Assembly: GCA_035297125.1 (NCBI GenBank)
Contig: DATGZQ010000019.1
Coordinates: forward strand, 12,940-76,939
DNA length: 64,000 nucleotides
Source of the DNA: Thermoplasmata archaeon
GTDB taxonomy: Archaea > Thermoplasmatota > Thermoplasmata > Lutacidiplasmatales > UBA184
Direction: 5' to 3'
Shown: positions 10,938 through 40,979 of the stretch, piece by piece
How the letters are laid out: each line of letters begins with the position of its first letter
Position numbering within the stretch: position 1 is the first letter of the stretch
Notes under the pieces: generated by a model
Database searches by the model: none
Told to the model about the DNA's origin: nothing
Seen by the model: the letters and a program-made list of their open reading frames with translations, nothing else
Position numbers and translations under genes: made by a program

Positions 10938-11453
10938 TCAGCCGGGTCCGGCCCGGACGTCACAGACGTCCGCCCAGGAGCAGCGCCCGCAGCGGCCCGG
11001 GCTCGGCGTCGCCCGCCCGTCGTACCTGGCCCGGACCGCGCGGTCGATGGCGAGAAGCTCGGATCGGGCGGTCGCGTTCCAGGCGACCCTAACCTCCCGG
11101 TCCGTGTAGCGCAGCACGCCGAACGAGGGCGAGCGGCCTGTCGTTTCCTCCACGAGCAGGCAGTACGCCCACACCTGGACGACATGCGACGGGAAGGCGC
11201 CGCGCGCGGGCGCCGCCCGGTGCTTCAGCTCGATCGGGACGAGCGTCCCGTCGGGCGCGCGACGCAGGATGTCCGGGCGACCCGAGAGGCGGTACCGTTC
11301 CGAACGGAGGGTCTCCGGTCGGCCGGCGTCGATCGATACCAGGGACCCGAACCGGCGGTCACGGCGCCGGTGCGCGAGCAGTCCGGCGCCGGCCGCGAGG
11401 ACGATCAGCCCGACGCCGAGTACGGCGAGGGCGAGGAGCGGCGTCACCGCCAC
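10938..11453 (-). CDS. Cas4-family nuclease, C-terminal segment (second TM helix, D...ELK, QxxxY, CX2CX5C)
   Basis: 171 aa. Starts with helix AVTPLLALAVLGVGLIVLAAGAGLLA. GRPDILRRAPDGTLVPIELK gives the RecB motifs II/III, HVVQVWAY the QxxxY motif, and GRCGRCSWADVC the three C-terminal Fe-S Cys residues. Confidence 0.55.
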   Translation of the reverse strand: MAVTPLLALAVLGVGLIVLAAGAGLLAHRRRDRRFGSLVSIDAGRPETLRSERYRLSGRPDILRRAPDGTLVPIELKHRAAPARGAFPSHVVQVWAYCLLVEETTGRSPSFGVLRYTDREVRVAWNATARSELLAIDRAVRARYDGRATPSPGRCGRCSWADVCDVRAGPG

Positions 11454-11695
11454 AGGAAGACCGCCAGCGCCCCGAGGACCAACAGCGCGCCGATCCCCAC
11501 GAGGGCCCAGTAGGCCGACCCGTGCGCCGAACGACGGAGCTCACCGCCCAGCGTCCGGGCGTGATATCTCTCCCCCGCTACGGAGCTCCGGCTCGGCGGG
11601 GCCGACCCGTACGTCTGCCGGTAGTAGTGCGCGCGCGGGCAGTACGCATACTCGGCGAGCTCGGACGGGGTCGTCCACCGCTCTTCGGAACGCAC
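11444..11695 (-). CDS. Cas4-family nuclease, N-terminal segment (first Cys, GxxH motif, first TM helix)
   Basis: 83 aa. AEYAYCPRAHYY is the Cas4 N-terminal Cys motif and GERYHARTLG the Cas4 motif I. Ends in a hydrophobic helix AYWALVGIGALLVLGALAVFLW. The stop overlaps the next ORF. Confidence 0.55.
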   Translation of the reverse strand: MRSEERWTTPSELAEYAYCPRAHYYRQTYGSAPPSRSSVAGERYHARTLGGELRRSAHGSAYWALVGIGALLVLGALAVFLWR

Positions 11696-11761: not shown

Positions 11762-12193
11762 CTATGCGTCGTCGGCCGAGTCCGAAGCCTTCGCCTTGGG
11801 CTTCGGCTTGCGCGGTCTCGGCGCCTTGGCCGCGTCGGCCTTCGCTTCTCCGGTCGCCTTCGCGCGTGCCGGAGCTGCGGGAGCCGGGGTCTCCTTGGCG
11901 GCGGGAGCCGGTTCCTTGGCGGCGGGGGCGGCCTTCGACGGGGCGGCGGTCGCGGGGCGGGACTTCGGCGAGGCGGCCGAGGCGCGCACGCTCGCCGAGT
12001 GCTCGGCGGCCTTCTTCAGCTCGTACGCCCGGGTCCACTTGAACCGGTGGCCGACCCGGCCCAGCTTCAGCTGCTGCTTGCGGCACGACGACGTGCAGAA
12101 ATGGAAGACGGTCCCGTCGCGCTTCACGAACATCGACCCGGTGCCGGGTTCGATCTCACGGGCGCAGAACGAGCACTGGCGCTTGACCACCAT
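11762..12193 (-). CDS. rpl24e: 50S ribosomal protein L24e with a long Ala/Pro/Lys-rich C-terminal tail
   Basis: CSFCAREIEPGTGSMFVKRDGTVFHFCTSSC is the L24e zinc ribbon. The protein is 143 aa against the usual 60-70 aa. The tail is KAAPAAKEPAPAAKETPAPAAPARAK... ending in KPKPKAK. Confidence 0.8.
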   Translation of the reverse strand: MVVKRQCSFCAREIEPGTGSMFVKRDGTVFHFCTSSCRKQQLKLGRVGHRFKWTRAYELKKAAEHSASVRASAASPKSRPATAAPSKAAPAAKEPAPAAKETPAPAAPARAKATGEAKADAAKAPRPRKPKPKAKASDSADDA

Positions 12194-12894: not shown

Positions 12895-13968
12895 GCTAGT
12901 AGGGCCGGCGGCGCGGAACGCGGCGCTCGAAAGCTCCGGATGCTCCGCGAAGTAGCGGCGCGCGGGAGCGATCAACCGGTCGAGGGACGCGACCACCGCG
13001 CCCTTCAGGTCCTGGGGGTGGAGGCGCCCCTTGGCCCATGCGGCGAGGAACGCCGGCTCGTCCGGGAACTCCACCGGCCCGCCGTGCTTCGCGGCCCGCT
13101 CGACCGTCAGGCGACCCTCCCACGGGAACACGATGTACCGGGCGATCTCCACGACCGGGTTCCCCTCGACCTCCTTCACCGGACAGAAGGCGGCGCCGAT
13201 GCGCGCGGCGATCTCCTCCCGTTCCGAGGGGATTGGGGCCCCCGACCCGGGGTCCGATTTCGACATCTTCCCCTCCACCGGCCCGTCGGTCGGGTCCATT
13301 CGGCCCCCGCCGCGCAGGGACGAGAGGAGGGGCGTGTGGACCGCGGCCGGGACCGGCCACCCGTAATGGTGGGCCACCTCTCGCGCGAGGACGTGCGCCC
13401 GGCGCTGGTCGAGCCCGCCGTAGGCGATGTCCACCGGGAGCTCGAAGATGTCCGCCGCCTGCATCGAGGGGTAGAACAGCTTCGAGCTGTCGAGGTTGGA
13501 TTCCTCCTCGCTTCGGCCCATGATCGACATCGCCCGCTTCGTGCGCGCGAGGCTGGTCGCCTTCGCGACCCGGACGACCCGAGCCCAGTACGCCGACGAG
13601 CCCGTGAGCTCGTGCGCCCAGCGGAACGAGACGCGCTGGGGGTCGGCGCCGAGGGCCGTGAACGCGGCCTGCATGTACCGACCGCACGCCTCGATCCGGG
13701 CGAGGTCCCCGTCGAGCTTGTCGTTGATCCAGGCGTGCCAGTCGGCGAGGAAGACGGTGACGTGGCACCCCGCGTCGGCGAGGTCGATGATCTTGCGGGC
13801 GGTGATGAGATGGGCGATCGTGAGCGAGCCGGACGGTTCGAACCCGATGTACGCCCGGGGTCGCTCGGTCCGCGCGAAGAGCGCCCGGACCTCCTCCGGC
13901 GTGAGGACCTCGGCCGTGTGCCGGACTACCCGGTCGACGCGTGCTTCGACGTCCACGTCACTCCTCAC
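12886..13968 (-). CDS. tyrS: tyrosyl-tRNA synthetase, archaeal type
   Basis: 360 aa. Class I motifs YIGFEPSG (HIGH region equivalent) and KMSKS. Confidence 0.8.
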   Translation of the reverse strand: MRSDVDVEARVDRVVRHTAEVLTPEEVRALFARTERPRAYIGFEPSGSLTIAHLITARKIIDLADAGCHVTVFLADWHAWINDKLDGDLARIEACGRYMQAAFTALGADPQRVSFRWAHELTGSSAYWARVVRVAKATSLARTKRAMSIMGRSEEESNLDSSKLFYPSMQAADIFELPVDIAYGGLDQRRAHVLAREVAHHYGWPVPAAVHTPLLSSLRGGGRMDPTDGPVEGKMSKSDPGSGAPIPSEREEIAARIGAAFCPVKEVEGNPVVEIARYIVFPWEGRLTVERAAKHGGPVEFPDEPAFLAAWAKGRLHPQDLKGAVVASLDRLIAPARRYFAEHPELSSAAFRAAGPTSVK

Positions 13969-14034
13969 CTCCCCCCGTATTTAGGCCGTGGCGCGGCGTC
14001 CGGGGCGCTCGCAGGGGCCTTCTCCTGACGGAGA

Positions 14035-14044
14035 CATATATTAT
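14035..14044 (+). promoter_or_regulatory. AT-rich TATA-like element between divergent tyrS and KaiC-like genes
   Basis: CATATATTAT lies about 34 bp upstream of the ATG at 14078. It is the only AT-rich stretch in this intergenic region. Confidence 0.3.
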
Positions 14045-14077
14045 GACCTCACGCCGCGCTAGTCCTCTCCTCGGTCC

Positions 14078-16351
14078 ATGGACGGTGCGACGGGGGGGGC
14101 GATGGCGGCTCCGGAAGGCTCCTCGTCGGGGGCCGACGATCTCGCCCGGGCCCTCGGGCTTTCCCGCGGCACCGCGCAGCGCCTCGTGGACGCCGGGTAC
14201 GCGAGCGCTCCCGCCGTCCGGGAACTCTCGACGGAGACCCTCGACCGGCTGGGCGTGACCGCCGAGGAGCGGGATGCCATCCGCCGCAGCTCCCCCTCGC
14301 CGGACGTGGCCGCCGCGCCCGCCGCTCCGTCCGCTGCCTCGGTGAACGCCGACCAGATCGTCGAGCGTTGGGTTGGGAACGTCCAGCGGGCAGACCGGGG
14401 GCGAAAGCGCCGGCTCCCCACGGCCGCGAAAGGTTCCACCGACGTGCTGCGGAAGTGGGTGGACGGCGATGACCGGGCGATGGAGGACTGGATCCGTTCC
14501 TCCGACACCGAGCGTCCCGCCCCCGTGGCCCCGGCTCCCCCGATGGCCGCCGGAACGGAGGAGGGGGCCCTGCTGCCCCGCACCGCCGAGCCCGGCGGTT
14601 TGCCGACGGTCAGCGAGCGGGAGGAGACGGTCGTCCGATGGCTCACCGGCCTCCTCGACCGCGTGAAATCCGACCAATTCGACCCTTCCTCGATGATCCA
14701 GGAGGTCCAAGACCTCCAGCGGCAGCTCTACGACGAGCGGACGAAGCGCAAACAGCTCGAGGACCAGGTCGAGCACGTCAAGCGCGGCTCGATCGCCGTC
14801 ATCAAGTACGTACGGTCGCGGGAAGCGAAAGAGCGCGAGCTCGCCGTGCGGGCCAAGGAGGCGGAGGTCGCCGACCTGAGGCTTAGGCTGACCGCCCTCA
14901 ACGGCTCCCCCGGCGGCCCCGGCGCCCTCCCCGAGGCCCCGGCCGGAGACGGCGCCCCGTCGTCGGGCTCGGACCCCGGCGCCGTCGAGCGGGCGATCCG
15001 CGACACCGAGCTTCGCCTCCGCAACGAGTTCTCCGACCACGAGCACCAGTTCATCGAACGGGAGACGGAGCTTCGCCGACGGGTCGTCCAGCTGGAAGGC
15101 GAGATTCGCAGCCTCTCGAGCGTGGCCCAGCAGGCGGAGGGCCGGGCCGAGCTCGTCGGAAAGCAGGGGAGCCCCATCGCCGAGGACGTGACCCGGCGGT
15201 TGGAGGAGCTTACGCTGAAGGAGCGGGACCTGGTCGCCCGGGAGAACGAGCTCCGCGCGAAGTTCGAGGAGATCCGGATCAACGCCGAGGAGGTCGAGCG
15301 GCGACGGGGCCCCCTCGAGTTCAAGGAGCGGGAGCTCGCCGTCTACGACCAGCAGCTGCAGACCCGCCGCCAGGCGCTCGACATCGAGGCGCGACGCCTC
15401 GAGGAGCATCGACGGGAGGCCGGGATCGGCGGCGTCGCGAAGACGAGCGAGGGAGCCCGCCTCGACGACATGCGCCACGAGCTCGCCAAGAAGGAGGCCG
15501 AGCTGCGCGCGCGCGAGACCCAGCTCCAGGACCAGGTCCGGGAGCTCGAGAAGCTCGCCGGCCGGGCGGCCGAGGCGGACGCCGACCAGATGCATGCCGA
15601 CAGCGTCGCCGCGGCGGAGTCCCCCAAGGTCCGGAGCGGCGTCCGCCGGCTCGACGACCTGCTCTTCGGAGGGTTCGCGGCGGGGACCCAGATCCTGCTC
15701 AACGGTCCTGCCCATACCGGAAAGGACGTCCTCGCGCGGTTGTTCTCGACGGAGGGCCTGCGCGTCGGGATCCCCTCCCTCTGGGTGGTCACGGACAAGA
15801 GCTACGGCCAGGTCCGGGACGACCTCGCGACGCTCTACCCCGGCCTCGCGGACGCCGAGAAGAAGGGGATGCTGCGGTTCGTCGACCTCTACTCGCTGTC
15901 GGTCGGGTCGTCCGCGCCGGTGCCGGGCGTGCGCTTCCTCTCCTCGACCGGCAAGGCGGTCCTCGACCAGCTCGCCCAGAGCGTGAACGGGTTCGGCGAG
16001 GAGCTGAAGTCGAAGTTCTCGACCTACCGGCTCATCTTCGAGTCGGTGTCGACCATCACGGCGTACCTCGACACGGCATCCACGTTCCGGTTCCTCCAGC
16101 CGTTCGTGGGACGCCGCAAGCTCGACGGGGCCGTCGGCTACTATGTCCTCGAGAGCGGCATGCACTCGGAGTCGGACCTCGAGACGCTGGAGCACATGGT
16201 CGACGGGTCGCTGAACCTGAAGATCGACCAGATGAAGACGTTCCTTTCGGTCCGCGGGATCGGCGAGGCCCAGGCGCGGAGCTGGGTCGGCTACACGTTC
16301 ACGAAGCGCTCGTTCAACCTCGGCTCGTTCAGCCTCGAGCACATCCGCTGA
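14078..16351 (+). CDS. KaiC/RecA-superfamily (COG0467-like) domain protein with N-terminal HhH and a central coiled coil
   Basis: 757 aa. N-terminal HhH-like LARALGLSRGTAQRLVDAGY. About 350 aa of heptad-rich E/R/L/Q sequence. The C-terminal KaiC-like domain has a Walker A, LLNGPAHTGKD (Asp where Ser/Thr is expected), a Walker B-like MLRFVDLYS and a KaiC-type SGMHSESDLETLEHMVDGSLNL segment. Confidence 0.6.
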   Translation: MDGATGGAMAAPEGSSSGADDLARALGLSRGTAQRLVDAGYASAPAVRELSTETLDRLGVTAEERDAIRRSSPSPDVAAAPAAPSAASVNADQIVERWVGNVQRADRGRKRRLPTAAKGSTDVLRKWVDGDDRAMEDWIRSSDTERPAPVAPAPPMAAGTEEGALLPRTAEPGGLPTVSEREETVVRWLTGLLDRVKSDQFDPSSMIQEVQDLQRQLYDERTKRKQLEDQVEHVKRGSIAVIKYVRSREAKERELAVRAKEAEVADLRLRLTALNGSPGGPGALPEAPAGDGAPSSGSDPGAVERAIRDTELRLRNEFSDHEHQFIERETELRRRVVQLEGEIRSLSSVAQQAEGRAELVGKQGSPIAEDVTRRLEELTLKERDLVARENELRAKFEEIRINAEEVERRRGPLEFKERELAVYDQQLQTRRQALDIEARRLEEHRREAGIGGVAKTSEGARLDDMRHELAKKEAELRARETQLQDQVRELEKLAGRAAEADADQMHADSVAAAESPKVRSGVRRLDDLLFGGFAAGTQILLNGPAHTGKDVLARLFSTEGLRVGIPSLWVVTDKSYGQVRDDLATLYPGLADAEKKGMLRFVDLYSLSVGSSAPVPGVRFLSSTGKAVLDQLAQSVNGFGEELKSKFSTYRLIFESVSTITAYLDTASTFRFLQPFVGRRKLDGAVGYYVLESGMHSESDLETLEHMVDGSLNLKIDQMKTFLSVRGIGEAQARSWVGYTFTKRSFNLGSFSLEHIR

Positions 16352-16436
16352 GCCCGTTCATCCCCTCCACGCCGTCCGGAGCGCGGTTTCGCCCCCTGCC
16401 AAGAGCTATGTAGAGGACGCCCGTCGGTCTCTTCGC

Positions 16437-16747
16437 TAGGCTAGACCGGGGGGTTGGGCGTCCCCTTACACACCGAAACCGTCCTTAGCGGGGGTGACAG
16501 GCAGGAGCGACGTTCGGAGGAGTCGCGCGTCCCGCGTGGCTTCGCAGAAGCTCTGTTCCGCCGGGCCGCGGGCCCCGCGACGAGCGCTCGGAGGAGCGCC
16601 CTAGCGGGTATCCATCACGGGCATCGGGTCAGGTCCTGACGGGAGCAGCCTTACCGTGACCCGTCGACGCTGGCGGGGTGACGGGGCCGAGGAGCGCGCG
16701 AGATCTACGGGCGATTCGTCCGGGCGGCAATCCTGCTGGCCTAGCAC
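16437..16747 (+). ncRNA. candidate signal recognition particle RNA (7S/SRP RNA)
   Basis: The 490-bp ORF-free gap contains GGUCAGGUCC-UGAC-GGGAGCAGCC at 16626-16650, matching the universally conserved SRP helix-8 SRP54-binding motif (GGUCAGGUCCGGAAGGAAGCAGCC). Complementary ends GCUAGGC (about 16437) and GCCUAGC (about 16738) could close helix 1. The length is about 310 nt. A TATA-like CTATGTAGAG lies about 25 bp upstream. Confidence 0.5.
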
Positions 16748-17381: not shown

Positions 17382-18758
17382 ATGGGTGCCATGGCGCCAG
17401 GCTCGAGTGGAAGTGGGGGGGTGGGGGTGTCCCCCAACACGGCCGCCACCCCGGGCCCCGGTGAGATGGCCGCGGTCGTACGCCAGATCCGGGAGACTGT
17501 CCGACGCCACTCGGCGCGGTTCGAGCGGTCGATCCCGCTGATCGCGAGCGAGAACTTGCTCTCACCCTACGCGAAGGAGCTCATGATCTCGGACTTCCAC
17601 TCCCGCTACGCCGAAGGTCTGGTAGGCGATCGGTACTACGAGGGGAACGAGCAGGTCGACGAGGTGGAGACCATCTGTCTCGGCCTCGCCCGCCGCCTGT
17701 TCCGGTGCTCGTTCGCGGACGTCCGCCCCATCTCGGGGACGGTCGCGAACCTCGCCGTGCTGAAGGCGCTCACCGAACCGGGCGACCTCGTCGCCACGAG
17801 CCGCCTCGCCGACGGGGCGCACATCTCGAGCGCGGCGTTCGGCGCGTTCGGCCTACGCAACGTCCGTCCGGTATACTACGCGTGGGATTCGGAGAAGATG
17901 ACGATCGACGTCCCGCGCACGCGCGAGATCCTGAGGGCCGTCCGTCCGAAGACGTGCCTGTTCGGCCTGTCGCTGTTCCTCTTCCCGCTCCCGATCGACG
18001 AGCTCCGGTCGACGATGGAGGAGATCGGCGCCCGCGGCTGGTACGACGGCGCGCACGTGCTCGGCCTCATCGCCGGCGGGCAGTTCCAGGACCCCCTACG
18101 GGAGGGATGCGTCGTGATGAGCGCCTCCACGCACAAGACCCTCCCCGGTCCGCAGCACGGGATCCTTCTCGGCCAGACGGAGGACCCAGAGCTTGTCCAC
18201 CGTCTCCAGTCGGGGGCGTTCCCCGGCGTTACGAGCAACCACCATCTGAACGCCATGGCGGCCCTCGCGGTGAGCCTGGCCGAGCATCTCGAGTTCGGAC
18301 AGGAGTACGCCCGACGGACGATCGCCAACGCCCGGGCGCTCGCCCAGGCGTTGCACGACCGGGGGTTTGACGTCCTGGCCGCCGATCTCGGGTTCACGAG
18401 GTCGCATACCCTCGCCGTCCGGGTGGACTCGGAGGGGGGCGGGGCTGCCGTCGCGCGTCGCCTCGCGAACGCCGGGATCATCGCGAACAAGAACCTCCTG
18501 CCGGGCGACAAGAGCCCGAAGCAGCCCGGCGGGGTCCGCCTGGGCACGCCCGAGGTGACCCGACTCGGGATGGGAGAGGCCGAGATGGTCCGGATCGCCG
18601 AGCTGTTCGACGACCTCCTGCACCGGGGGCGGAGCGTCGAGGACGTGTCGGCCCGGGCCGCCGAGTTGAAGAAGGGGTTCACGACGCTGCGCTACTGCTT
18701 CGGGGCGGGCGAATCCGCGTACCGGTACTACGACCTGGTCGGTCGGGACCCGTCCTAG
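17382..18758 (+). CDS. glyA: serine hydroxymethyltransferase
   Basis: LIASENLLSP, the PLP-site motif SASTHKTLPGPQHG and the overall length. The Gly-rich N-terminus is doubtful, and the true start may be the ATG near 17466 (MAAVVRQIRE). Confidence 0.85.
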   Translation: MGAMAPGSSGSGGVGVSPNTAATPGPGEMAAVVRQIRETVRRHSARFERSIPLIASENLLSPYAKELMISDFHSRYAEGLVGDRYYEGNEQVDEVETICLGLARRLFRCSFADVRPISGTVANLAVLKALTEPGDLVATSRLADGAHISSAAFGAFGLRNVRPVYYAWDSEKMTIDVPRTREILRAVRPKTCLFGLSLFLFPLPIDELRSTMEEIGARGWYDGAHVLGLIAGGQFQDPLREGCVVMSASTHKTLPGPQHGILLGQTEDPELVHRLQSGAFPGVTSNHHLNAMAALAVSLAEHLEFGQEYARRTIANARALAQALHDRGFDVLAADLGFTRSHTLAVRVDSEGGGAAVARRLANAGIIANKNLLPGDKSPKQPGGVRLGTPEVTRLGMGEAEMVRIAELFDDLLHRGRSVEDVSARAAELKKGFTTLRYCFGAGESAYRYYDLVGRDPS

Positions 18759-21538
18759 GGGCCCGGTCCGTCGCCCGCGAGCTCCTCGTCCCGCAGGCGG
18801 AGCGCCTCGTCGAACGCCTCCGTGTCCAGCGTTACCCTCGGCGCGGACGGTCCCGGGGCGAGGCAGAAGCGCGCCTTCCCGTCGGGCCCGACGCTCGCAC
18901 CCAAGGTCCCGTCCGTCACGAGGGACGCGAGCCAGTCGGCGAGGTCCGGCGGGGCGGGAGGAGGCTGCCAGGACGACTCGACCTCGGGCAGGTCGACCGG
19001 CCCGTGCCGGCGCACGATCTCGACGATCGCGGCCCGGCCTTCGGCGAGGCGCTGGAGCTCGCTCTCGTCCGACGGACCCGGAGCTCGGCGGCGAGCCCGC
19101 CGCAACGCGACCAGCATCACGCCGGCCCCGAGCGCGACGATCCCGAGGAGGGCTCCCACGACGCCGTACGGCACGGCCAGATCGTCGGCCGCGGCTAGCG
19201 CCGGTACCGTCAGCGGCCCGAGGAGGGCCTTGCCGGCGCCGTCCAGCACCGTGACGGTCCCGCCTTCGGGACCAGGGGCGGAGAAGTTGACCCAGACCCC
19301 GGTCGAGCCGTTCGATTCGGGCGAGGCGGTCTCGTTCTCTTCGGAGCTCTCGGAGCCCCACACGTACCGGATCGTCACGTTCGCCCCGGGCACAGCGTTG
19401 GCGAACCGGTCCTCCACTTGCCAGTACGTAGCGTTCGTGCGCGTTCCGCTCACGGCCACCACGGGGTCGTAGAGGCGGAGGTGCTCGGTATCCGGGTTCG
19501 CGAGAATGTGGATTTCGGGGACCGCGGACGGTAGGCCCCTTCCGACGAGCTCGACCGAGAATGGGCCGGCGGCGAGCACCTCGACGGTGAGGGCGAGCGT
19601 CCCGTTGACCCAGGCCGCGCCGGGAACCTCGAACGTACCGTTGCCGCCGCCCGTCAGGGGGCCCACGGTGGAGGCGTTGACCCAGCCGACCGGCGCCGTG
19701 GACCCCGGGCCCGCGAGGACGACGCTGGCGTTCGTCGAGAACGTCGGCACCGGCTGGTCCGAGCCGTCCAGCGCCTCCCAGCTCAGCGGAACGGAGCCGC
19801 CGACCACGACCGACGACGCGGGCGGGGTTCCGGTTTCGGTCAGCCGTACGGCCGATGCCGGCCCCACGGTGAGCGCGAGCGCGGAGCGAACGACGGTGCC
19901 GAGGGCATCGCGCGCCGTCAGTGTGAGGGTGACGGAGCCGGTACCGGACGGGACGAACGAGAGCCAGAGTTGGCCGTCGGCGCCCAACTCTCCGCTCTCG
20001 AGCGGGGCGTCCTCCGTGGAAGCGTTCCACCAGTACCGTCCGGGAAGGTCACCGCCCGTGATCGTGGAGGAGACCGAAAGGTTCGCCCCGACCGTCGCGT
20101 TCGGGGTCTCGAGGTCGAGCGAGGTCGCTGCGAGAGGGGCCACGACCGTGACGACGAACGAGACGGACCGGTTCGTCCCTTCCGAGTCCACGGCCCATGC
20201 AGATGCGGTGTACTGCCCGGGCGAAGCGTAGACCGGGTCGAACGTCCAGCTCGGCCCGGGCGCGCTCGTGCACAGCGGGGCACCAGACCCCGGGTCGAGG
20301 CACGCCTCCTCGAACGGAAGGATACCCGAACCCGCCGTGGCGATCAACTCGACCGGGAGCGGGGAGAGCGCGTAGCCGGTCGGGAACCCCGGAGTCACCC
20401 AGAGCGCGGCGGCAGGGTCCACCATGACGCTCGGGAACTGGCCGATCGCGGCCGAGAAGCCGTTCGTGACGTTGAACGCCGGCTGCGCGATGCCGGGTCC
20501 GGTGTAGGTGAGGTTGGCCAGGCACGTGGCCAGGACCGTTCCGGGGCCGTAGGCCGTCGTGCCGCACGGAACCTGGACCGCCGCAAGGCCGAGCCCCGGG
20601 TCGAGCCAGGCCCGATAGGCGTAGCCGGCGGCGCCCACGACCGTCACGTTGGCGGAGACGTTGGAGCCGACGTCCAGTTCGGTACGGTTGAGCTCGGCCT
20701 CCGCGAGCGTCGTCGCGACCGCGTCGAGGGCGATCGTACGCGGAGGGGGCGAGAGGGCCGTTCCGTTGACCGTCGCCTCGGCCTGTACGGTGAGCTTTCC
20801 GGCCGTCGCACCGGGGACGGAAACGATGGTCGCCCGGTCCCCGACGGGGGCGGTGGAGAGCGCCCAACCGGTCCCGTTGAGCGTCCAGGTGTAAGCCGGG
20901 TCGAGCGGAGTCGCGGAGCCGTTCCCCTGCCACCCCGAGGCCACGAGGGAAATCGGGGCACCCGGGGCCACGGTGAGGGTCGACCCGGCGGGCGAGAGCG
21001 TGATGTCTTCGAGCAGCCAGACGAGAGCCAGGTCCGCCGCGTCCGACGTCACGTCGAACGAAAGCGCATAGCCGTCGGGCGGGGGCTCCGAAAGCGAAGG
21101 GGTGAGCGGCCCGATCGCCGAGGAATAATCCGTGCAAACGGTACCGTTCGGTACGGGAGTGCAGTAGCTGCGCGGCGTCGTGGGCGCGAACGAGAACGCT
21201 CCTCCAGCGTCCGTCGTCACCGAACCCGAGAGCGACGCACAGCTGGCGCTCGCCACGACGCCACCGGGTTCGTCCACGACCCAGACGTCCACGAAGTACG
21301 AGAACCGGATCGTGGCACCGCCGGTACCGTTCGGGGGGAGCGGCCCCCCATCGACCTTCAGGGTGCCGGCGTACACGGGCCGCAGGTGCGACCCCGCGCA
21401 GGCACCCGAGGTCGCGAAGGCGGTCGGCGGGCTCGACGAGGAGTGTGGGGGAGGACCCCACGATAGGACGAGGGCAACAATCACCACGGCGACCACCGGA
21501 CCGGGGATCGATCTCGAGAACGAGCCTCCGGCCGGCAC
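18755..21538 (-). CDS. cell-surface (S-layer-like) glycoprotein with signal peptide, C-terminal TM anchor and cytoplasmic tail
   Basis: 927 aa. The N-terminal hydrophobic h-region is VVAVVIVALVL. More than 20 N-x-S/T sequons (NGT, NVS, NAS, NLT, NRT, NET and others) lie in a Thr/Ser/Gly/Ala/Val-rich body. A C-terminal helix VVGALLGIVALGAGVMLVAL is followed by RRARRRA and an acidic tail of about 100 aa. Confidence 0.6.
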   Translation of the reverse strand: MPAGGSFSRSIPGPVVAVVIVALVLSWGPPPHSSSSPPTAFATSGACAGSHLRPVYAGTLKVDGGPLPPNGTGGATIRFSYFVDVWVVDEPGGVVASASCASLSGSVTTDAGGAFSFAPTTPRSYCTPVPNGTVCTDYSSAIGPLTPSLSEPPPDGYALSFDVTSDAADLALVWLLEDITLSPAGSTLTVAPGAPISLVASGWQGNGSATPLDPAYTWTLNGTGWALSTAPVGDRATIVSVPGATAGKLTVQAEATVNGTALSPPPRTIALDAVATTLAEAELNRTELDVGSNVSANVTVVGAAGYAYRAWLDPGLGLAAVQVPCGTTAYGPGTVLATCLANLTYTGPGIAQPAFNVTNGFSAAIGQFPSVMVDPAAALWVTPGFPTGYALSPLPVELIATAGSGILPFEEACLDPGSGAPLCTSAPGPSWTFDPVYASPGQYTASAWAVDSEGTNRSVSFVVTVVAPLAATSLDLETPNATVGANLSVSSTITGGDLPGRYWWNASTEDAPLESGELGADGQLWLSFVPSGTGSVTLTLTARDALGTVVRSALALTVGPASAVRLTETGTPPASSVVVGGSVPLSWEALDGSDQPVPTFSTNASVVLAGPGSTAPVGWVNASTVGPLTGGGNGTFEVPGAAWVNGTLALTVEVLAAGPFSVELVGRGLPSAVPEIHILANPDTEHLRLYDPVVAVSGTRTNATYWQVEDRFANAVPGANVTIRYVWGSESSEENETASPESNGSTGVWVNFSAPGPEGGTVTVLDGAGKALLGPLTVPALAAADDLAVPYGVVGALLGIVALGAGVMLVALRRARRRAPGPSDESELQRLAEGRAAIVEIVRRHGPVDLPEVESSWQPPPAPPDLADWLASLVTDGTLGASVGPDGKARFCLAPGPSAPRVTLDTEAFDEALRLRDEELAGDGPGP

Positions 21539-40849: not shown

Positions 40850-40894
40850 ACGCGGGCCCCGACCGGTGGAAGCGCCCCGGTCGGACCGGGGGAG

Positions 40895-40979
40895 TGCGGG
40901 GAGAGGGATTTGAACCCACGAACCCCTACGGGACCAGACCCTGAATCTGGCGCCTTTGACCAAGCTGGGCGATCCCCGC
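40895..40979 (-). tRNA. tRNA-Leu (anticodon CAG)
   Basis: The minus-strand read GCGGGGATCGCCCAGCTTGGTCAAAGGCGCCAGATTCAGGGTCTGGTCCCGTAGGGGTTCGTGGGTTCAAATCCCTCTCCCCGCA folds as a cloverleaf. It has a 7-bp acceptor stem, an anticodon loop TTCAGGG and a long variable arm (type II). The T-loop is GTTCAAATCC. CCA is not encoded. Confidence 0.75.

Follow-up and report, generated by a model that had tools for sequence, protein, structure and literature searches.

P-loop nucleoside triphosphatases (NTPases) are defined by the Walker A motif GxxxxGK[S/T]. RecA/KaiC-like folds that work without canonical ATPase chemistry include the Elongator subunits Elp4/5/6 and the yeast Shu proteins Csm2-Psy3, which mostly lack a P-loop, bind nucleic acid, and form rings or heterodimers. 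The archaeal RadA paralogs known as aRadC proteins bind DNA and modulate recombination. In Rhodobacter sphaeroides KaiC-RS (8dba, 8fwi), a coiled coil gives higher-order assembly of the KaiC ring (PMC10076222), and KaiC-like and inactivated KaiC (iKaiC) domains are described in another report (PMC5847659, citing Makarova et al. 2017) as archaeal signaling hubs. Here, we analyzed 64,000 nucleotides (nt) of DNA from a Thermoplasmata archaeon of the UBA184 lineage (assembly GCA_035297125.1, contig DATGZQ010000019.1, forward-strand positions 12,940 to 76,939; the whole stretch is referred to as the window) and, within it, a gene at 14078-16351 on the + strand. Its 757-amino-acid (aa) product carries a helix-hairpin-helix (HhH) head, a long helical region, and a C-terminal KaiC-type domain. 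By profile and predicted fold, the protein is a member of the KaiC/RecA superfamily (PF06745, COG0467), and its catalytic motifs, as read from alignment, are not those of an ATPase. The alignments place it in a large uncharacterized Thermoplasmatota branch of that superfamily, in which the Walker A Ser/Thr is replaced by an acidic residue. The features that carry this assignment are as follows (positions in the window).

15626-16348, + strand: KaiC-type RecA-fold domain, aa 517-757 (PF06745, DUF7504, AlphaFold2, Foldseek)
15704-15727, + strand: deviant Walker A motif GPAHTGKD, aa 543-550, with Gly and Lys kept and Asp for Ser/Thr (translation, conservation)
15791-15799, + strand: T572-D573-K574, directly after strand beta2, where KaiC and PH0284 have the catalytic Glu-Glu (PH0284 alignment, translation)
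16025-16042, + strand: predicted Walker B strand YRLIFE, aa 650-655, with the final Glu for Asp (PH0284 alignment, model)
16310-16348, + strand: C-terminal tail SFNLGSFSLEHIR, nearly invariant, ending the protein; family consensus GSFxLERIR-COOH (conservation)

The KaiC/RecA-type C-terminal domain put forward in the original prediction was recovered by both profile and fold. Pfam KaiC (PF06745) matches aa 518-721 with 52.6 bits against a cut-off of 26.6 (E=5.3e-14). DUF7504 (Pfam PF24336) matches aa 536-711, along profile positions 1-176 of 179, with 42.4 bits against 27; since it overlaps PF06745 and scores lower, this match denotes the same superfamily region. Relatives are labeled 'KaiC/GvpD/RAD55 family RecA-like ATPase' at JGI and 'DUF7504 family protein' at NCBI. 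The closest solved structures by sequence are PH0284 (E=7.8e-11), KaiC CII, and PH0186. An AlphaFold2 (AF2) model of aa 505-757, computed for the domain alone from a diverse 29-sequence alignment, reached a predicted local distance difference test (pLDDT) score of 93.3 and a predicted template modeling score (pTM) of 0.90. Foldseek matched it to PH0284 (2dr3) with E=2.8e-16, TM scores of 0.79/0.86, and a root mean square deviation (rmsd) of 2.5 Å; KaiC CI, KaiC CII, and PH0186 followed. The full-length AF2 model, based on 30 close orthologs, was poor on the C-terminal domain (pLDDT <50, spurious helices, and marginal Foldseek matches), and the domain-only model was used instead. Judged from secondary structure and model confidence, the P-loop is modeled in the canonical strand-loop-helix arrangement, with QILLNG (538-543) as the strand, PAHTG as the loop, and K549-D550 at the start of the helix (pLDDT ~98). 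The domain also holds conserved basic residues (K681, K715, and R734), and its tail, whose last residues fall below a pLDDT of 50 in the monomer model, may serve docking or trans contacts.

Translation confirmed that the Walker A sequence LLNGPAHTGKD (aa 540-550) has Asp where Ser/Thr was expected, and conservation followed suit: of the 120 best homologs, 115 have D directly behind GK and 4 have E. Neither a return to canonical GK[ST] in the orthologs nor a non-RecA fold of the domain was found. The wider family was collected by a profile search of 1.84 billion cluster representatives (50% identity), which returned 1394 at E<=1e-3 and 167 at E<=1e-30; position counts were taken from 142 aligned domains among the best 150 representatives. 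At the Walker A Lys, K is present in 124/135, and the Ser/Thr position reads E101, D16, Q5, S4, and T2 (E/D in 117/135), with GPPFxGKE as the consensus. The acidic Walker A residue is the mark of a large Thermoplasmatota family and not a peculiarity of the window protein.

The departure from canonical chemistry predicted from the Walker A motif extends to the rest of the catalytic center. In the alignment, 'ALEE' of PH0284 pairs with 'VTDK' of the window protein, which puts Asp573-Lys574 in place of Glu-Glu. Across the family, the position of the first catalytic Glu (573) is occupied by D80, S22, N11, T7, A6, and E4, and that of the second (574) by K59 and R30. The putative Walker B Asp is Glu655, invariant in close orthologs and variable in the wider family (R33, L26, E13, and D11); the HMMER alignment has low posterior probabilities around Walker B, yet the model has a strand at the matching position. 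A charge-swap covariation between acidic 550 and basic 574 was considered as well. Both occur together in 76/135 domains, but the covariation is unsupported because Lys/Arg574 is equally common without an acidic 550 (12/18).

Other positions are under tight constraint. D603 (136/136), G694, D709-G710, R734, W736, and the tail GSFxLE[RH]I[RK] at the protein end are near-invariant, and TFRFLQ, GMH, and the C-terminal GSFxLERIR are family-specific motifs. The orthologs of the window protein form a subclade in which GPAHTGKD, D573-K574, and E655 are all invariant or nearly so: G543, G548, K549, D573, E655, and D603 do not vary, and D550 is conserved at ≥90%. Read together, the alignments indicate that all three positions normally devoted to Mg2+ binding and water activation are replaced (Asp550, Asp573-Lys574, and Glu655), so that the phosphate-binding loop appears preserved while the Mg2+ and water-activation apparatus appears removed or recharged. 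The near-invariance of the P-loop Gly and Lys, D603, R734, W736, and the tail argues for a retained binding function, not decay, and the pattern as a whole for binding in which ordinary hydrolysis plays no part. One search of a limited literature collection gave no earlier example of a GK[D/E] Walker A that is active, and we know of none; our literature searches likewise turned up no paper on this GK[E/D] family, whether under DUF7504, iKaiC, or the GKD motif.

As the origin of the deviant motif, an error of sequencing or assembly or a decaying pseudogene was considered. Nothing speaks for such an origin, and it is refuted: GKD (115) and GKE (4) recur among 120 independent orthologs, GK[E/D] among 117/135 aligned family representatives, relatives are present in 332 GTDB species genomes, and the open reading frame (ORF) is intact with coding-type third-position GC. 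This ORF (14078-16351, + strand) is complete, with an ATG start, and codes for 757 aa plus a stop. The GC content at its first, second, and third codon positions (GC1/2/3) is 0.72/0.47/0.93 (GC3, 0.925). GC3 is similar in the nearby genes for tyrosyl-tRNA synthetase (TyrRS; 0.92) and serine hydroxymethyltransferase (SHMT; 0.91). An antisense ORF of 794 aa (13958-16342, - strand) overlaps the whole gene with a shadow pattern (GC1/2/3, 0.91/0.48/0.72). The + strand is taken as coding because its codon-position GC resembles that of TyrRS and SHMT, whereas the antisense frame is only shadow-like. The DNA is about 70-72% GC throughout the window, and long spurious ORFs are common in it for that reason; the 794-aa antisense ORF is a reminder that ORF length by itself is meaningless at such GC. 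Searches found 408 homologs, of which the best 120 are nearly all full length with 61-100% identity, and mean column identity is 68% along all 757 aa, across genera. The gene is real and strongly conserved in uncultured soil Thermoplasmata archaea.

Named family members belong to Thermoplasmata/Thermoplasmatota or to unclassified 'Euryarchaeota'/'Methanobacteriota' metagenome-assembled genomes (MAGs). The pattern-limited scan of GTDB species genomes gave at least 332 relatives, and the family comprises at least 1394 clusters at 50% identity. Among the best 80 of the 332 GTDB relatives are UBA184 and Ca. Lutacidiplasma silvani, and the closest (95%) is a Danish soil MAG. Thermoplasmataceae and acid-mine lineages have forms of ~300 aa in which the coiled coil is short. 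A distant member from a JGI metagenome (P0178, 1257 aa) has HD-CE and an nSTAND1 NTPase fused to the same KaiC-like domain, which stands at the C terminus in a GKQ variant; since this fusion puts the domain where sensor or interaction modules of STAND proteins normally sit, it suggests that the KaiC-like domain can be such a module. The window protein itself is a vertically inherited core protein of soil/peat Thermoplasmata (UBA184 / Ca. Lutacidiplasmatales-type lineages).

Among described proteins, the nearest are PH0284 (2dr3) and PH0186 (2zts), single-domain KaiC-like ATPases of Pyrococcus horikoshii (thermo_KaiC_1 type). They have the same fold over the 240-aa domain (rmsd, ~2.5 Å), are the best sequence matches (E=7.8e-11 with the single sequence, 9e-13 with the profile), and have in common with the window protein the N-terminal 'G..RLD.LL.GG.P' motif and the P-loop Gly and Lys. 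PH0284, however, reads GTGKT at Walker A, Glu-Glu behind beta2, and Asp at Walker B where the window protein has GKD, Asp-Lys, and Glu, and it lacks the N-terminal extension. The thermo_KaiC_1 NCBIfam model scores 42 bits against a cut-off of 307; therefore, the window protein is no equivalog. More generally, all NCBIfam KaiC, FlaH, RadA, and SMC models score far under their cut-offs for the 757-aa protein, so it is not an equivalog of any named protein.

A second group to compare is iKaiC/MEDS/DUF7504/DUF7090, to which the likeness consists of the DUF7504 match over its cut-off and weak MEDS and DUF7090 similarity. The concept of a KaiC fold without catalytic residues is common to both (PMC5847659). 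The GK[E/D] family differs from iKaiC/DUF7504 in keeping the Gly-rich loop and Lys almost invariantly and, perhaps also with respect to DUF7504 proper, in its specific acidic substitution. The partner domains also differ: HhH, Zn-ribbon, and coiled coil in the GK[E/D] family, and REC, PAS, and HalOD1 in iKaiC/DUF7504.

RadA/Rad51 and the aRadC paralogs have the same module order, an HhH N-terminal domain (NTD) followed by a RecA-superfamily core, and aRadC SSO2452 (2w0m) is a profile match (E=1.2e-5). In the window protein, ~450 aa of basic, Trp-acidic, and coiled-coil sequence are inserted between NTD and core, the core is KaiC-type, and the catalytic motifs are deviant. No PF08423 or other Rad51/RadA match was found in Pfam/NCBIfam at E<=1; RadA/Sms (TIGR00416) reached 17.3 bits against 403, and RadB (2cvf) E=0.71. 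KaiC-RS resembles the window protein in joining a KaiC fold to a coiled coil and is a structural neighbor (8db3, 8fwj); it is, in contrast, a double-domain active autokinase/ATPase with a short C-terminal coiled coil, whereas the window protein is single-domain, deviates in its motifs, and carries a long stalk at the N-terminal side. The Elp4 profile (PAXNEB) passes its cut-off in some family members (P0125, 31.6 against 28 bits) and is marginal for the window protein (E=0.007, 15.8 bits), with no sign of shared ancestry with Elongator or Shu beyond the superfamily. Clock KaiC is not matched, since there is a single domain only and TIGR02655 and NF006799 score 18.1 bits against 546 and 35.5 against 408. 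The SMC_prok_A model (15.8 bits against 729) covers the helical region only, while in the window protein the NTPase-like domain is contiguous, C-terminal, and KaiC-type. For ArlH/FlaH, NF004723 reached 16.3 bits against 194 and 4wia E=0.45, and no arl context was seen. By these profile comparisons, the window protein is none of clock KaiC, ArlH, RadA/RadB, or SMC.

The N-terminal half and the helical region add the following features.

14123-14287, + strand: (HhH)2 domain, aa 16-70 (AF2, family profile against the PDB)
14357-14515, + strand: basic patch RADRGRKRR, then the Trp-acidic motif LRKWVDGDDRAMEDWI, aa 94-146; W127, G130, and W138 invariant (conservation)
14609-14863, + strand: aa 178-262, a conserved helical module carrying the motifs FDP and ELEHVKRGSIAVIKYVRS (32/150 family representatives; nearly invariant in orthologs)
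14903-14974, + strand: Pro/Gly-rich variable linker, aa 276-299 (24 aa), disordered (pLDDT <50, low conservation with gaps)
14975-15619, + strand: three long charged helices, aa 300-359, 366-448, and 458-514, with repeated [KR]E.EL..RE..L (AF2 pLDDT 70-88; heptads)

The predicted HhH domain was confirmed, as was the order HhH, long helical region, KaiC-like domain, which is real and conserved. AF2 models five short helices (16-26, 30-38, 44-48, 52-57, and 62-70; pLDDT 90-94). The single sequence matches Pfam HHH_5 weakly (E=0.07), and some distant members reach 6.8e-13. Against the PDB, a profile of 18 family N termini gave several matches to the (HhH)2 repeats of Topoisomerase V (2.2e-20), together with the HhH extension of archaeal eL32 (4e-10), the Pyrococcus Rad51/RadA NTD (1pzn, aa 42-85; 1.1e-6), the human RAD51 NTD (1b22; 1.3e-5), and RadA 1t4g (5e-4). 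The Arg/Lys patch after the HhH domain is conserved in distant members (~30% identity), and a Zn-ribbon precedes the HhH domain in some members. By homology, the head is of the DNA-binding type; we infer DNA binding from this and from the adjacent basic patch. Down to ~30% identity, 22 representatives have one or two copies of the Trp-acidic motif KWLxG[DE][DE]xAxxxWL, and the helix motif ELEHVK(K/R)GS(I/V)A(V/M)(I/M)KY is detectable at ~30% identity as 'VK(K/R)GSxAxxKY'. No second protein with the Trp-acidic motif and no paralog were found in the 64-kb window.

A coiled coil of about 350 aa had been proposed between the two domains. The long helical region stood (aa 178-514, 337 aa), and the single rod did not: AF2 breaks the region into five helices (178-197, 203-275, 300-359, 366-448, and 458-514), with clear heptad stretches beginning at about aa 204, 316, and 369. 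A Fourier scan for 3.5-residue periodicity did not distinguish the helical region from the globular domains, and a register-based test of a/d positions was used instead. Because the helices are five with breaks between them and the heptads only moderate, the region is modeled as a segmented helical/coiled-coil stalk or bundle and not as one continuous rod.

Three further features flank the gene.

14036-14044, + strand: AT-rich TATA-like box ATATATTAT, 34-42 nt upstream of the ATG (read directly; putative promoter)
14058-14063, + strand: conserved GCTAGT(A) element, upstream of the ATG and ~15 nt downstream of the TATA-like box
16434-16746, + strand: archaeal signal recognition particle (SRP; 7S) RNA gene, 83 nt downstream of the target stop codon (RF01857, 129 bits)

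In most orthologous loci analyzed, the 8-mer with the highest AT content is found some 38 to 50 nt before the start codon, and nearly all orthologous upstream regions compared have a GCTAGTA-like sequence at about -20; both elements keep their distances upstream of most orthologs (50-95% identity). The gene thus appears monocistronic, with its own conserved putative promoter, and GCTAGT(A) may be an initiator or transcript 5' end, an element of the 5' untranslated region, or a regulator site. The SRP RNA gene lies downstream on the same strand in 9/9 orthologous loci tested, within ~100 nt in the close relatives L003, L004, L009, and L019. Its presence explains the apparent noncoding gap, and the ORFs listed across that gap are spurious.

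Upstream of the gene, the order is methyltransferase, Cas4-like PD-(D/E)XK nuclease, 83-aa ORF, L24e, (S28e), L7Ae, and TyrRS, all on the - strand except the methyltransferase; downstream are SRP RNA (+), a 4HBT thioesterase (-), SHMT (+), and a 927-aa protein (-). Divergent pairing with TyrRS was found in 76/85 loci and only within the order. Distant members are placed differently: the gene follows an enolase-superfamily gene or adjoins another KaiC-like gene. Since their neighbors are unrelated, we take the synteny to reflect inheritance within a housekeeping region, without an operon or functional link. Membership of a defense system was considered and dropped, the matches being sub-threshold coiled-coil ones to LmuB. 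The links to UV response and motility raised at the outset found no support in any test, and no archaellum genes lie near the target.

Several neighbors deserve mention in their own right. At 10938-11695 (- strand), the Cas4-like PD-(D/E)XK nuclease gene, which encodes 171 aa with a C-terminal Cys cluster and passes the cut-offs of PDDEXK_1 and Cas_Cas4, overlaps a conserved 83-aa ORF without a Pfam match. The pair sits inside the L7Ae-S28e-L24e / NDK housekeeping cluster; synteny of the nuclease gene was seen in 42/85 loci and that of the 83-aa ORF in 33/85, with no CRISPR/cas context. L24e (11762-12193, - strand; 143 aa) has a ~75-aa C-terminal extension rich in Ala, Lys, and Pro, the Pfam domain covering only aa 5-65. 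The 927-aa protein (18755-21538, - strand), downstream of SHMT in 26/85 loci, has no Pfam match, abounds in Ser, Thr, Pro, Gly, and Ala as well as in N-x-S/T sequons, and has a hydrophobic segment near the C terminus followed by a charged tail; it is probably a glycosylated surface protein. The sole tRNA of the 64-kb window is tRNA-Leu (CAG) at 40894-40979 (- strand). Outside the window, a Thermoplasmatota MAG locus (L090, 789-3579, + strand) has KaiC-like genes of 376 and 420 aa flanking a 93-aa ORF, opposite an AAA ATPase; it is possibly a multi-KaiC module, unlike the solitary gene of the window.

As a working interpretation, held tentatively and at somewhat less than even probability, we propose that the protein is a noncatalytic or very slowly cycling DNA-associated scaffold or tether. 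The KaiC-like domain would no longer be a Mg-ATP-hydrolyzing motor and would act as a module for self-assembly and for the binding of phosphate or nucleotide, turning over very slowly or not at all and probably forming rings like its relatives. The helical stalk would be a spacer that dimerizes or bundles, the HhH head and basic patch would bind nucleic acid irrespective of sequence, with duplex DNA as the most likely target, and the Trp-acidic motif would recruit a partner. Such a logic would resemble that of inactive RecA-fold mediators, not that of clock KaiC. We count in its favor the fold and family, the conserved deviant P-loop, the loss of the catalytic Glu and the Walker B Asp across the family, the residues that stay near-invariant, the HhH identity, the conserved Arg/Lys patch, the Zn-ribbons before the HhH domain in some members, the whole-length conservation, the P0178 STAND fusion, the putative promoter of the gene's own, and a housekeeping neighborhood (TyrRS, L7Ae-S28e-L24e, SRP RNA, and SHMT) with no defense-system signal. 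Several observations weigh against it. HhH/SAM-like folds serve protein-protein contacts too, and the N-terminal profile also matches SAM domains and NusA AR domains. The heptad signal of the stalk is moderate, with best-register a/d occupancy by LIVMF of 0.41-0.54 per helix (z 1.7-4.5 against shuffles). No conserved operon or functional partner was found in the neighborhoods of orthologs and distant members; the structural or chromatin-associated role suggested in the original prediction gained no support from any test, DNA binding being deduced from HhH homology and the basic patch only. Finally, two acids that are invariant in this ortholog group, Asp573 at the catalytic-Glu site and Glu655 at the Walker B site, together with Asp550, which could ligate Mg2+ directly, could allow residual or unconventional ATPase activity.

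The main alternative, which we hold to be unlikely, is an active unconventional NTPase or motor in this subclade, in which Asp550 ligates Mg2+, Glu655 serves as Walker B, Asp573 is the general base, and ring cycling moves the coiled-coil arms on DNA. The invariance of G543, G548, K549, D573, E655, and D603 and the ≥90% conservation of D550 in the ortholog group fit such an enzyme, as do the canonical modeled P-loop (pLDDT ~98) and the fact that the nearest structural relatives are hexameric ATPases. However, Arg and Leu predominate at the Walker B position of the GK[E/D] family (R33 and L26, against E13 and D11), Ser, Asn, Thr, or Ala frequently occupies the catalytic-Glu position, which is followed by Lys/Arg instead of Glu, and the one literature search gave no active GK[D/E] precedent. 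With the family's Walker B and catalytic-Glu positions so replaced, Mg-ATP hydrolysis is an unlikely ancestral function of the clade. A signaling adaptor of the archaeal KaiC-like 'hub' type, in which either a KaiC-like ATPase or a phosphorylated protein would be the partner bound by the inactivated KaiC domain and the HhH and Trp-acidic modules would make protein contacts without a direct DNA role, is improbable on our assessment. It would draw on the iKaiC hub concept (PMC5847659), the Pfam MEDS and DUF7504/DUF7090 similarities, the distant member adjoining a second KaiC-like gene (L090), the member fused to a STAND NTPase, and the SAM and NusA-AR matches of the HhH profile. Neither the protein nor its conserved neighborhood has a PAS, GAF, or REC sensor domain, a kinase, or a KaiB-like gene, the best HhH matches are the DNA-binding Topo V HhH arrays and RadA/Rad51 NTDs, and the Arg/Lys patch follows the HhH domain directly. 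We consider very unlikely a cytoskeletal or structural coiled-coil protein for cell shape or division, with the KaiC-like domain as a mere assembly knob and a vestigial HhH domain. The charged helices (~300 aa), partly periodic in heptads, and the weak coiled-coil-type matches to SMC, LmuB, and the RNase Y N-terminal region would suit it; the HhH domain, basic patch, and Trp-acidic motif, however, are as conserved as the remainder and hence not vestigial, and no division or cytoskeleton genes are linked.

The tentatively preferred DNA-associated scaffold has a bolder form, to which we give only a small probability. In it, the P-loop would be re-engineered: the GK[E/D] domain would dispense with the usual Mg2+ chemistry in binding a nucleotide or other phosphate ligand, its metal site would be reshaped by the acidic Walker A residue and by the Lys/Arg that stands for the second catalytic Glu, and rings would project coiled-coil arms with (HhH)2 DNA-binding heads. 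If true, this would amount to an unrecognized Thermoplasmatota-specific chromosome-tethering or -organizing machine built on a KaiC scaffold and not on ABC/SMC.

Inactivated KaiC domains are already known as a concept (PMC5847659), and the GK[E/D] family with HhH head and stalk is a variant for which our literature searches found no paper. The family keeps P-loop and Lys under strong selection yet swaps the Mg2+-ligating hydroxyl for a carboxylate and drops the usual catalytic acids. It is thus a natural experiment on the uses left to a P-loop once canonical hydrolysis chemistry is gone: it might sense ligands, bind independently of Mg, or cycle very slowly. Annotations now in use, namely 'ATPase domain-containing protein', 'RAD55 family ATPase', and 'recombinase RecA', overstate catalysis. 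The ~300-aa short forms of acid-mine Thermoplasmatales relatives may be more tractable. As a conserved core gene of abundant uncultured soil/peat Thermoplasmata whose modules point to DNA association, the gene is a candidate player in archaeal chromosome or repair biology.

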